From Eledone cirrhosa (Eukaryota), in NCBI GenBank assembly GCA_964016885.1, contig OZ024741.1:150474001-150538000 (forward strand): a stretch of 64,000 nucleotides of DNA. Direction: 5' to 3'. This document shows, piece by piece, positions 5,173 to 50,754 of this stretch. The position numbers were made by a program, and so were the translations under genes. Numbering within the stretch: position 1 is the first letter of the stretch; the number at the start of each line of letters is the position of its first letter. The notes below the pieces were generated by a model. It saw nothing but the letters and a program-made list of their open reading frames with translations, was not told the origin of the DNA and ran no database searches.

Positions 5173-5246
5173 ATACATACATACATACATACATACATAC
5201 ATACATACATACATACATACATACATACATACATACATACATACAT

Positions 5247-8200
5247 ATTCCATCAGTCAACGCGATCAGTCGCATATTTTGGCGTGGGAAACTATTTATT
5301 AAATTTAAGATGAATACTATCTCCGACAGTAATGCCACAACTACAGCCAGGTTGCATAACTGGTTATTCTTCTAACTATCCCTTCTGAAGACACCTTTTA
5401 TTCGAATTCGTAGAGAAATCCGACTAAATACATAATTCATTTTACAAGGATTTGCTACAAACAGCATGGCTGAACACAACATCAACAACAAAATTAAGGA
5501 AGTATCGAAGACAAATAACAAAGAAGGTAATCAAACTTTATTCAGTTGTAGCTACAGAAGAAACCGAAATTATAAATCGCATTTCTCTTGGATTTGTGAA
5601 CTTAATAATGATTTATTTAATTGTTATAAAATGGCAAAAAACAATCCCTCCATTGGCTATATGAATAGAATGAAGCTACACTGGGACGAAATGCACCCAG
5701 AGCTAAATTATTTCCCAGCGAAACAATTACGCCAACAAGCGACGTTTGTTGAACGTAAAAATAAGATAAATATTATTAATTGTAAGTCCCCCACAACAAA
5801 CATGGAATCAACAACACGTGCTACAGATCGCCATGCTACTAGACTTCCAGGTCGAACAATGCCTTGAAACAACTATGCCTGTAAGAAACTTGACACCACC
5901 TGTACCATCTAAGTCTACCTCGAATGCTGGGGAAAACACTATCGATAATAATAATAATCGAAGAAATAATAATAATAATCGAATAAATGTGACACCACGT
6001 ATACCATCCGAGTCTACCTCGACTGTTGTGGAAAATACTATCGATAATGATAATCAAAAGTATAAACAATTGAAAATTTCCCTCAACGAAATCTTCCAGA
6101 GAGAAATTAACTCATGTATAAATATCTCTCTTGCTGAACGTGTTAAAATGACAATGGTGAATAAAAAACCAAATAATGAAATACTACGTGTTATTGAGGA
6201 AATAGGGGATGAATATTTACGACGGATAAAAACCCCAACATTTTGGCAAATTAACGCCTGTTTATATGCCTTAGCAATGACAGTGAAGCATTATCTTGGT
6301 GATAACAGAGATATATAACTAAAATAGAAAAAAAAGAGTGCTGACCTACGAAAAAACATAGGACATGTGATAATGCTCCTTACATGCAAACAAACACAAA
6401 AAAACCTCACTCCTCACCAACAAAGAGTGAAAAATAAAATAGAGACGATGTTTGGTAACAGTAGAACCAGAACTCTCCAATATAAGCTGATCACCCTCAA
6501 ACAAGAATTGAGAGCTGTTAGCGAAAAACGCCGATACCCGAAGAAGGTAGATGAGAGAAAAATGCTTAATAAAAGATTCAGACGAAACCAAACATCAGTC
6601 TATAGAGATATGAAGGGCAAAATAATAAGTGTCACTGAGGCCACATCCCAGAAAGACATAGATTCCTTTTGGAGAAAAATATGGGGTGAAAAGAAGAATT
6701 TCAACCAAGATGCAGTGTGGCTAAGAGAAATCCGAAAGAACTATTGCTCCTACACTACAACAAAAACATATGAAATAAGTGAGGGTACCCTTGAGACTGT
6801 GATAGGAAAACTCCAAGATAAGAAAACACCAGGAAGAGACATGATTGTCGGCTACTGGTACAAAAAACTAATATTCTATCGGAGGTATCTTACTGACCTC
6901 TACCAAAAAGTTCTTAAGGAAGATACACTTATACCAGAATGGTTGACATTAGCACAAACGTTACTGGTCCCCAAGAACAAAGACACCCACTTGGAAAAAA
7001 AACTACCGACCCATTGCATGCCAGAACCTGATGTATAAGATGTATACAGCCTACCTCAACCTATTCCTCCAAGATCACTGTGAAAATAATAACATCATCA
7101 CAGATGAACAAGCAGCTGGAAAGAAAAGGGTTTGGGGATGTGCTGAACAACTCCTAATCAACAAAACTGCGATGTCGGAGGTGCAACAACTTAGGAGGAA
7201 TATGACTACAGTCTGGCTGGACTACAAGAAAGCTTTCGATTCTGTTCCCCACTCTTGGATGATAGAGGCCCTCCAACTGGCTAAAGTCCCAGACATTATT
7301 GTCAGAGCCATAGAGAGGCTGTCTTCTTCTTGGGCTACTATCCTAAGGTTAAAGACAGAGAGGGAGGACTCTATTTTCACTGATAAAATAAAATATTGCA
7401 GGGGTATATTTCAGGGGGACAGTCTCTCTGTGATATTGTTCATCTTGTCATTAAACCCCTTGTCCTTTCTGCTCAAGAAATGTGAGGGATACATCATTGG
7501 CTCACAGGAGGACAGAAATACGAACCTAACCCATAACTTCTTTGTGGACGATCTGAAACTCTATGCCAAGAACATGGATGGGATGAAGAAAAATCTTGAC
7601 CTGGTTACAACGTTCTCAAAGGATATAGGAATGGAGTTTGGCCAAGATAAATGCTCATACATGACTGTAAAGCGGGGAAAAACAACAACCCAATCTAGCA
7701 ACATTGTCATCAATGGTCTAACTGTTTCACCGATATCTGATGAGGACTGCTACAGATATCTGGGGATAGATGAGAACATATCCTATAATGGTATCTGTAA
7801 TAAAGAACGCGTAACTAGGGAATACTACACCCGATTAAGAAAGATCTGGTCATCGGAACTCTCTGCGCAAAACAAAACAGTGGCTCACAATGTGTTTGCT
7901 GTGCCTGTCCTAACACCAACGTTTGGAATACTCAATTGGACGATAGACGAAATCCGAGCAGTTGATGTTGGAACTCGAAAAATACTGAACAACACCGCCT
8001 TTACTTGAAACGTAAGCAGGGAGGCAGAGGCCTAACATCAGTCCAGCCAACATTTGAATGTCGCATCATATCTCTCCGACATCTTCGAACCTCGAAGCGT
8101 AGGAGCCCGCTTCTCGAGCAAGTCTATCTGCATGAAACAGATAAGATCATGAGAGTTGGGAAGGAACTCCTTGAGAGATATTCCCTGTGTGATAATCAAA

Positions 8201-47700: not shown

Positions 47701-48113
47701 CAGCTATTTCGTTCACCGCTTCCAATTCCAATTCCAATTTAGTGGGTTCTTTACTGATTCTGGTGTTGTATGGTCTGTCACTCACATTAAGGCTGTGTAT
47801 CTCTTGAAACATATCGTTCCATATCAGTTGGAGGGTGTCCACAAGTTTTTGGTGTTCTGTTTGTTCAGTAGAGTCATGAATTTCAGCCCCGTTGTTGATG
47901 TGGTGACAATTACTACTAGAGTTAACTGACCTTTCTCGCTGTTCTTCAGTGGAAGTGGGATGGATTTCAGCAAAATTGTTGGTGAGCTGTTCACTGTTAG
48001 ATTTAGCTGGCCATTCTCTTTGTCTGTCAGTGGAGGTGGGGTGGTTGTCTACAAGGGCTGTATTTGTAGTATCACTCAATTCCGTTAGATGTATCAATTT
48101 ACATCTAATGATA
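44721..48113 (-). mobile_element. 5'-truncated family-B Dong/R4 copy in (TATG)n
   Basis: ORFs 46934-48097, 46286-46831, 45580-46305, 45182-45469, 44804-45112, highly similar to 12501-15885. Confidence 0.92.
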
Positions 48114-50754
48114 CGTATGTATGTATGTATGTATGTATGTATGTATGTATGTATGTATGTATGTATGTATGTATGTATGTATGTATGTATGTATGTATGT
48201 ATGTATGTATGTGTATATATATATATATATATGTGTTAATATGTGTAGTGCCTTTGCTCACTATAAAAGCTTCACGGCACAGGCATTGCTTTATATCTGG
48301 AGATCTCTCTGCACTTGTCGTCACATGGTACCATGGGCCCAGCACTATGTGTCAATAATTGTCACAAGTGTAGTGTTTGTACCAGAGTTTTCAAGTCGGT
48401 GGCTGGAATAAAAAGTCACACTTGTTCAGCGTATCGGTAGGGGTTCTCCTACATGGATATAAAGTAGTGGCCGTACTCGAAAACGAGTTGGCAGCCACCA
48501 TATATATATATATATATATATATATATATATATATATATATAAATCTACATACATACATATATATATATATAAATCTACACACACACACACACACACACA
48601 CACACACACACACACACACACACACACACACACACATATATACATATATACATTTACGTATGTATATAGCTATGCATTTATACATTTGTATTATACATTT
48701 GAAAACACCAGTAAAATAATCAATTTCCTAGATATAACTTTGGACTTATCTACGGGTATCTACCAACCTTACCATAAACCTAAGCAAAACTTGCATTACA
48801 TACACTCACAATCCAATCACCCTAGATCTATCCTTAAAAACCTACCATATAACATCTCACTTAAGATCTCTATTAAACGCGCTCGATAAAAACGCGCCAT
48901 TTTATAACGAAGCTTTAGCTAGAAGTGGGCACAAAAACAAATTCGTATACATACCTTGCACCAATAATATTTCAAACATACAAACTAATATTACCAACAA
49001 ACACCAAATGAAAAACCCACACCTAAATGCCACTCATACTACACCTAAAATAACAACCTAAAACTTAATTTCTCTACCTCTTCTCACATAAAATATAATG
49101 ACTTTCAAAAAACCATTCATCCTAATACTCCAACATATGTTAAAAAAATTACTAACAAAATTCCTAGTAATCAGACTAAAACACCTAAATCAGTTAATCA
49201 AACTAAACCTATATATAATAAAATCACAAATAGTAACCCTTAGTAAACCTCCTCATACATCGTATAAATATAAGAAATAATATCGAAACCGTAATAGACG
49301 GGTTACTTGGTTTAATGCTCCATTTAATTTACAAATTAAAGACAATATCCCTAAAAAGTTCTTTGCTATCCTAGCGAAAAACTTCCCACTAAACCATAAA
49401 TACCATCAAGTTTTAAATAGATCTACAATCAAATTCTCCTACTCCACTATCAAAAATTTACAACAGAATATAAGTGCGTACAACGCATATAAGTGTAAAA
49501 AACCCATAAATATACCACCAACACATCAAACCAACCATAATAATACTAAAATAAACCATAACAAACCACCATCTCCTTCACCTATAACATGTCCTGTAAA
49601 TTCCACACCAAATTTAACTAACTCCCCTGATATAATATTCACGAATGGTTGTAACTGTAGAATCAAAAGAAATTGCCCATTAAAGGGAAATTGTCTTATT
49701 AATAACATAGTATATAAATGTGAAGTTAGCACTAAGGACTCCACTTATTCATATATAGGAGCTACGTCTAACCAATTTAAAGTAAGATTTAATACCCACA
49801 AACATAGTTTTAAAAATGCCGCATTGGCTAATACAACATCCTTGGCTGAGTCAATTAATAATTATAGAAAGAAAAACATCGATTACAACCTGACTTGGAG
49901 CATGCTCAAAAGGGCCACCCCTTATCAAAATAGCAGATACGAGTGTAGGTTATGCTCCCAAGAACTTTTTGAAATCATGAAATCTAAGGATATCCTATTA
50001 AATAAGCGACAGGAATTAATTATATCTTGCAATCATAGAATTAGAAGAACCTTCAAATATTATAAACCTAATTAATATACACCTTACTCTTATATTTTAC
50101 AAATTATTATAATTGTTTTTTTAAAATTTAGTTAACCTATAATTAGTATTTTACTACAGAGAACTTGATATTTTTTCCCTCTTACAGCTCTCTTTTCCTA
50201 AAATTATTTTTAACCACACTACTTCATTTATTCGCATCCCCTATTTATCACATTTAATACCTATGATTATTAAATATAATTAATATCTTTAATATCATCA
50301 ATGTCCGTGTCGATACAATACTCTTTATACAAAATTATTTTATCTACTTCAGTTTTTCCATATATTTATCTTTTATTTTTATTGTTTTAATTTCTTACTT
50401 CCTTATTTATCACATTCGTATGAATTAATATAATTTTATCCCTGTAAGTATACCTATAAATTAATTTAATTTCCTGTTGTGTATTTAGATTCCTTGTAGT
50501 TTAAATAAGATTGGTATTTCTCACTAATACCCTTTTCCCCAAATTTTATTTTCCTTCGTTTTTAACAACACTCTTTAATAACATCAAGTTTTTATTTATC
50601 ACATTCATATGGATTAATATAACTTTATCCCTGTAAGTATACCTATCAATTCATTTAATTTCTTGTTATATATCTAGATTCCTTGTAGTTTAAATAAGAT
50701 AGGTATTTCTCACTAATACCCTTACCCTAAAATTTTATTTTCCTTCGTTTTTAA

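Follow-up and report, generated by a model that had tools for sequence, protein, structure and literature searches.

The 64,000-nucleotide stretch of the Eledone cirrhosa genome considered here (contig OZ024741.1, positions 150,474,001 to 150,538,000; the window) holds seven decayed copies of two retrotransposon families without long terminal repeats (non-LTR), A and B, which encode a reverse transcriptase (RT) and a restriction-like endonuclease (RLE) and whose ends sit almost everywhere on the microsatellite (TACA)n. On balance it seems probable that A and B are Dong-type elements of the R4 clade that insert by target-primed reverse transcription into (TACA)n arrays already in place, always in one orientation. 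That the arrays are truly targeted, taking together a choice set by the protein and one set by the RNA, is held with considerable confidence. The domain content, the repeat at both ends, the 5' truncation and a near-constant 3' register can all be read directly from the DNA.

Ends of the copies in the window

Self-comparison and tblastn recover two copies of A and five of B (Table 1), each family having a single open reading frame (ORF) and every copy being broken. Thirteen copy ends survive and (TACA)n adjoins 12 of them, namely six of the seven 5' ends and all six 3' ends. Read on the sense strand of the element the repeat is (CATA)n at all 12, a single orientation common to both families. 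The first-pass annotation, made from the letters alone, had reported (TACA)n in fixed orientation at both ends of five copies and at one end of two fragments (18431-19145 and 11440-11845), and all of this was borne out; the fragments are B', with the repeat at its 3' end, and B'', with the repeat at its 5' end and with homology that reaches some 100 bases beyond the earlier 11440 boundary, to 11344.

Four of the five shortened 5' ends keep (TACA)n. Nine distinct arrays serve the 12 ends, three of them being common to neighbouring copies. Of the seven 5' ends four are independent, sharing no array with the 3' end of another copy, and three of these four lie on (TACA)n. At the 3' side the array begins ACAT after a non-repeat A in four of six copies, drawn from both families, the remaining two being off by 1-3 bases. 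Truncated 5' ends and the repeat share 0-4 bases, which is consistent with microhomology joining; target-site duplications are unreadable within repeat arrays.

Within the window (TA)n of at least 12 bases forms 73 arrays (2238 bases), (CA/TG)n 39 (1187 bases) and (TACA/TGTA)n 18 (914 bases). The (TA)n and (CA/TG)n arrays together amount to 3425 bases, 3.7 times the TACA coverage, and contain no A or B junction, in agreement with the earlier remark that no copy sits directly in these commoner repeats. TACA runs of 24 bases or more touch an element in nine of 11 cases, and at two long (TACA)n runs with no flanking RLE element (44142-44208 and 61068-61169) no short A or B 3'-end remnant was found. 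The chance of at least three of four independent 5' ends falling on TACA is about 1.2e-5 from base coverage, and that of three out of three is 0.009 if insertion is confined to TACA, TA and CA repeats, both values being rough and derived from a single window picked for showing the pattern. (TAA)n adjoins none of the 13 A and B ends and forms no run of 24 bases or more in the window, so that by their target A and B lie outside Dong as narrowly defined.

An internal contrast to A and B, with their repeat at both ends, is provided by a different long interspersed element (LINE) at ~19268-20700 on the minus strand, which carries an RT (RVT_1 E 2e-9 within 19745-20400) and has (GAA)41 at its 3' end only. 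It is presumably RTE-like, to judge by its motifs. A piece related to it lies at 54445-54822.

Table 1. Copies of families A and B and their flanking arrays, in window coordinates
Positions	Strand	Feature	Remarks
5173..5247	+	(TACA)n array, 18.8 units	5' flank of near-full A copy
5248..9311	+	Family A, near-full-length decayed copy	From Pfam, tblastn and translations; N-terminal domain ~5544-5774, RT ~6995-7768, CCHC ~8464-8541, RLE to 9075, then 3' untranslated region (UTR)
9311..9341	+	(TACA)n array, then (CA)6(TA)6	3' flank of near-full A copy
11344..11845	-	Fragment B'', internal, old and diverged	71% to B; short (TACA)n at 5' end, 3' end missing
11846..11860	-	Short (TACA)n, only ~15 bases	Serves truncated A as 3' flank and B'' as 5' flank
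11860..12410	-	Family A, 5'-truncated: RLE end and 3' UTR	87.8% to A positions 3487-4061
12410..12502	-	(TACA)n, ~23 units	Serves full B as 3' flank and truncated A as 5' flank
12501..16722	-	Full-length family B copy, decayed	Single ORF with four in-frame stops and one frameshift
15829..16089	-	B N-terminal three-helix domain	Predicted structure; Myb/SANT-like by weak fold matches
16723..16813	-	(TACA)n, ~23 units	Serves full B as 5' flank and truncated B as 3' flank
16814..17223	-	Family B, 5'-truncated, 410 bases	97.6% to B; begins at B position 3811
17224..17295	-	(TACA)18	Independent 5' flank of 410-base truncated B
18256..18433	-	Interrupted (TACA)n, ~44 units	3' flank of B'
18436..19144	-	Older copy related to B (B')	82%; has the single end without (TACA)n
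19145..19267	-	(GAA)41	3' tail of a different RT-bearing LINE; adjoins B' 5' end
44658..44722	-	Interrupted (TACA)n, then (TA)7	3' flank of 3.4-kb truncated B
44723..48116	-	Family B, 5'-truncated, 3.4 kb	96.4% to B from position 837; RVT_1 and zf-RVT matches
48115..48212	-	(TACA)24	Independent 5' flank of 3.4-kb truncated B

Direct repeats of 258 bases (95% identical) around the 3.4-kb B copy were considered as a giant target-site duplication and rejected: they stand away from the junctions and read as the truncated 3' ends of a different element, whose C-terminus is zinc-finger-like and whose tail is (AT)n. These two pieces (44389-44647 and 48242-48499, plus strand) each have (AT)n on or close to both sides, and possibly belong to a (TA)n-preferring family in the same compound microsatellite. 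An 84%-identical inverted repeat (~44090-44230 and 48560-48700) encloses the whole 44.2-48.6 kb cluster, and suggests that the elements there all landed within an older palindromic element.

Family B junctions in public reads

Family B, and this family only, was compared together with its short flanks with 4 of 14 public read runs, covering three organism codes. Summed contig depth, which is not a copy number, drops steeply from the 3' to the 5' side of B (in run X4 from 487,869 to ~6,400), as expected for a large and mostly 5'-truncated family. Loose ends were listed for 24 of 1566 entries, 13 of the 24 being on the 5' side of B, and these give no genome-wide fraction. Among the listed 5'-side ends (TGTA)n is read at 13020 (2 contigs), 13237 (447 reads, perhaps from a single locus) and 16734 (3 contigs). 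Contig joints at 12606 and 13865 likewise pass from the element interior into the repeat, so that the reads add four truncated B 5' ends and the full-length 5' end on (TACA)n. At the 3' side the repeat is present in 19 contigs at 12502. The remaining listed 5'-side ends are element sequence with small indels (three), AATT cut sites (two) and non-TACA sequence (five), at least one of the last reading by eye as the coding sequence of a diverged relative. High-count loose ends of run X12 at AATT sites (12516, 12581, 12613, 12658 and 12932) and read starts at CATG sites (13277 and 13488) were dropped as artefacts of reduced-representation libraries. The first-pass annotation had named two patterns as speaking against its idea, most copies having the repeat just at the 3' side or the 5' flanks being random, and neither pattern holds in the window or among the read junctions listed.

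Protein anatomy

Both families have the domain order putatively Myb-like N-terminus, RT, CCHC and RLE, B being one reading frame apart from its lesions and A being more fragmented. Pfam matches RVT_1 (E 1.3e-25) and zf-RVT (E 0.0095) in A, and the same two domains in the 3.4-kb B copy. A CCHC knuckle occurs in each family, as does an RPD..E endonuclease motif at the C-terminus; PD..E..KxxxY is present, and its P, D, K and Y are invariant across 26 homologues. By analogy with R2 the KxxxY lysine would be catalytic. No apurinic/apyrimidinic endonuclease (APE) family match occurs in any ORF piece of A or B. By their sequences A and B fall within the RLE-type elements (the R2 group), having RT, CCHC and a PD-(D/E)xK-type endonuclease without APE, and they fall outside Waldo and R1 because no APE is matched and the endonuclease is a C-terminal RLE. 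The two long B copies have one in-frame stop in common, early in the RT region (14710-14712 in full B), so that the element from which both derive may itself have been non-functional and mobilised in trans.

No N-terminal zinc finger is matched in the intact homologues (~1150 amino acids). The first 87 residues of B are modelled as three helices (predicted local distance difference test, pLDDT, 85), to which VIA structural matches are mostly of Myb, SANT or trihelix type (Zeste, TRF1, ISWI, Myb; Z 6.0-5.0), with the Atlas Myb_Rap1 cluster (0.84) serving as a lead only. Within this N-terminal domain R, Y, W, W, P and L are invariant in 31 sequences. The modelled domain fits, without proving, the diverged SANT/Myb-like domain of R4/Dong, and the Dong group resembles A and B in having an N-terminus without zinc fingers (PMC7998251).

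R4 and Dong carry a 5' ribozyme like that of hepatitis delta virus (HDV) (PMC3774820), whereas a core-pattern scan found none in A or B. With one decayed copy per family scanned, the relaxed HDV-like core pattern matched at the 5' junction of the relative L081 but not in A, B or the loci L002 and L060 (shuffled sequences matched in 4-16 of 200), and neither a stricter pattern nor Rfam gave a match. Folding of the 5' ends (z -2.1 and -0.9) indicates nothing firm.

Relatives and clade placement

The nearest named protein to A and B is from Argonauta hians, at 63-64% identity in RT, and A and B are 54% identical to each other there. B groups with the Argonauta protein and two unnamed proteins, and the grouping of A, B and the Argonauta protein as one clade is rejected (approximately unbiased test, p-AU 7e-5, in a quick tree of 23 rows with the group defined after earlier trees). 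Judged from these alignments A and B are distantly related and not sister lineages, so that the shared target either predates the split of many unnamed lineages or arose by convergence. The trees are quick IQ-TREE or FastTree ones, first on 170 of 203 projected rows and later on 51 and on 23 rows picked by hand.

A profile of 26 homologues led to metagenome loci, the best 80 of 369 being examined. The first 3' repeat was scored under a 400-base rule in the 31 of these 80 that have the C-terminus present and at least 60 bases beyond it, and was AAT in 17, AAC in two, ATG in two, ACC in one, ACAT in one (away from the junction) and none in eight. An ACAT run in L066 lies ~45 bases beyond a junction of degenerate (TAA)n and was rejected as a TACA target. 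In L081 both ends carry (TAA)n. Relatives flanked by (TAA)n behave like Dong, as microsatellite targeters, but their RT shares only 35-36% identity with those of A and B.

Around A and B a closer clade is found (Shimodaira-Hasegawa-like approximate likelihood ratio test, SH-aLRT, 100), in which L002 begins in (TACT)10 and L004 finishes in (CTTA)10. One end is visible in each, both arrays are (ACTT)n, one base from (ACAT)n, and that of L002 contains two ACAT units; the L004 array follows a 1.07-kb tail and was missed by the 400-base rule. L002 shares 68.5% identity with L004, and the two share 42-47% with A and B. A terminal repeat was not seen in L001, L003 and L014 of this clade. Scans of viral_contigs (one locus) and genome_contigs (13 loci, 23-33% identity) gave no close relative of A or B, and two of the seven genome_contigs loci whose ends were viewed begin in (TAA)n. 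L081, from viral_contigs, and L082-L088, from bacterial genome records, are animal-type Dong-like LINEs and most likely represent host or contaminant DNA. A tRNA-like head is seen in L010 (84-168) and at the 5' ends of L016 and L018, with ARAGORN calling tRNA-Gly in L010 only (one of five loci scanned), and is a possible internal Pol III promoter.

It is likely that A and B belong to the R4/Dong clade, because of the domain order, the N-terminal three-helix domain without zinc fingers and the (TAA)n-flanked relatives. The repeated target with repeat on both sides, as in R4/Dong, is observed at 12 of 13 ends in the window and at the read junctions. R2 is far more distant than the Dong-like set, since its structures match at E 9e-26 to 1e-12 and the Dong-like sequences at E down to 1e-210. 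The R4/Dong label given at first pass is thus upheld indirectly.

Comparison with known systems

Dong elements target (TAA)n (PMC3812793), and R4/Dong elements in general insert in ribosomal DNA (rDNA) or microsatellites (PMC7998251). The Dong of Bombyx mori, DongAg, DongBg and an ostracod Dong resemble A and B in their single ORF, RT with RLE, and microsatellite at both ends (PMC7998251, PMC3812793). Target specificity is usual among RLE clades, Togen being specific for (TG)n, and Togen and the microsatellite-specific HERO families are, like A and B, RLE elements of microsatellites, but of NeSL/HERO-related lineages and with other motifs, the comparison being by description (PMC4640811). R2 elements (R2Bm, R2Tg and others), the only solved relatives, share RT, CCHC, RLE and target-primed reverse transcription with A and B but use a 28S rDNA target, have N-terminal zinc fingers plus Myb and are far more distant. 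Waldo elements of the R1 clade (WaldoAg1, WaldoAg2 and WaldoFs1) target ACAY repeats, which include (ACAT)n and so (TACA)n (PMC3812793); unlike A and B they use an APE-type endonuclease and belong to a different clade, and the ACAT motif was reached independently.

Among molluscs Dong-R4 is nearly confined to cephalopods (PMC10294476). It is abundant in Octopus vulgaris, with 51 families, 92.7 Mb and 1129 recent insertions in 5 families (PMC13282606), and Dong-R4 is found in O. bimaculoides with few new insertions reported (PMC9115989). These octopus families bear the same clade label as A and B and are probably of the same host group, and A and B may already be catalogued in their consensus libraries without a target. 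No octopus Dong-R4 target is named in the text covered of PMC13282606, PMC9115989 (8 supplementary files) and PMC10294476. Fell et al. (2025) screened site-specific families across 4,464 animal assemblies (PMC13586686), and this screen could already list a (TACA)n target.

How the site may be chosen

On the preferred reading the N-terminal Myb-like domain and the RLE would recognise (TACA)n and nick the (TATG)n strand, and the 3'-OH at the nick would prime cDNA synthesis at the RNA 3' end, perhaps with some CAUA units of the RNA assisting. Whether full or truncated, the 5' end would then join the remaining upstream repeat via 0-4 bases of microhomology. Each insertion would leave (TACA)n on both sides so that later A or B copies could land beside earlier ones, which would account for the mixed-family, mixed-age tandem cluster at 11.3-19.1 kb. 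Schon et al. argue that the Myb-like domain of R4/Dong directs integration (PMC7998251).

Several points weigh against this reading. Three of the six (TACA)n 5' flanks double as the 3' flank of another copy, and the 5' end of B' lies on (GAA)41. In the reads only three of the 13 listed 5'-side loose ends show (TGTA)n, and two contigs at 12503 lack the repeat at the B 3' end. No empty site was observed. The family A case rests on two copies, and the Myb-like assignment is a weak one, with a best Z of 6.0 and neither a Foldseek match at E 0.001 nor a Myb match in Pfam.

A serious though less probable alternative is that the RNA sets the target: transcripts would end in (CAUA)n by read-through from the donor site, an endonuclease of loose specificity would nick AT-rich repeats, and pairing of tail with primer would select among the nicks. 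Such pairing would cover both flanks, the fixed orientation and the use of one motif by two non-sister families; several of the (TACA)n arrays indeed sit within compound TA/CA/TACA runs, and RNA homology arms reportedly retarget some R2 proteins (PMC13586686, on Fell et al. 2025). Yet the conserved N-terminal three-helix domain, with its six invariant residues, suggests that protein reads the DNA, and PMC7998251 credits that domain with target choice in the R4 clade, by argument only. The proposal at first pass of an RLE with tetranucleotide specificity is accordingly supported as to (TACA)n targeting, but to make the endonuclease itself the carrier of that specificity exceeds the evidence, as RNA-tail pairing may set it instead.

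It is improbable that (TACA)n is a mere 3' tail made by RT slippage, with the 5' arrays arising by template jumps onto another RNA's tail or by chance nesting. The doubling of 5' flanks as 3' arrays, the contact of most long TACA runs in the window with an element and the B' 5' end could all be explained in this way, but no RLE element lies upstream of the three 5' arrays at 5173, 17224 and 48115, further truncation points fall on the repeat in the reads, and adjacent copies of the cluster, at 71-98% to their family reference, are of different families and ages and so do not stem from one event. Unspecific insertion, with copies persisting or building up passively in repeat-rich, low-recombination DNA, is very improbable, for although the window is very rich in microsatellites and Drosophila Waldo-A/B near CA repeats are a proposed precedent (PMC3812793), the junctions are base-exact, of one motif and in one orientation, with none in the far larger (TA)n and (CA)n coverage.

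Other elements in the window

A near-perfect 467-base tandem repeat (3.7 copies) at 1344-3702, with an inverted copy at 1344-1905 and (TA)n on both sides, is either a young element resembling a miniature inverted-repeat transposable element (MITE) or an assembly artefact. MITE-like inverted-repeat elements bounded by (TA)n lie at 39397-40429 and 55153-55888, and an AT-rich degenerate minisatellite of 11-24-base units in direct and inverted copies at 20733-24548.

Implications

(TACA)n appears to be a target motif new to the Dong group, and it brings a tetranucleotide to a clade whose described targets are mostly (TAA)n and rDNA. Microsatellite targeting by Dong, the abundance of Dong-R4 in octopus and ACAY as the Waldo target are not new, and no new mechanism is proposed. 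The suggestion at first pass that no (TACA)n target had been described holds for RLE elements, none being found in the literature searched, which excluded Repbase, Dfam and Fell et al. (2025); it does not hold for the APE-type Waldo, whose ACAY target is published. RLE and APE elements thereby converge on the same ACAT repeat. Insertions into microsatellites map poorly with short reads, and the low count of new Dong insertions in O. bimaculoides (PMC9115989) may for this reason understate activity.

With A and B on one target and near relatives on (ACTT)n there is a natural series for asking whether protein or RNA tail is the site chooser, a live question for R2-type gene insertion tools. Since A and B use (ACAT)n and their relatives L002 and L004 (ACTT)n, it is conceivable, if rather speculative, that an old R4/Dong sublineage switched from (TAA)n to AC[A/T]T repeats. 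If true, the ACAT/ACTT/TAA series could map the retuning of Myb-like domain and RLE to a one-base change of repeat, and in octopuses such a sublineage would use and multiply its own target, and so shape the (TACA)n landscape.

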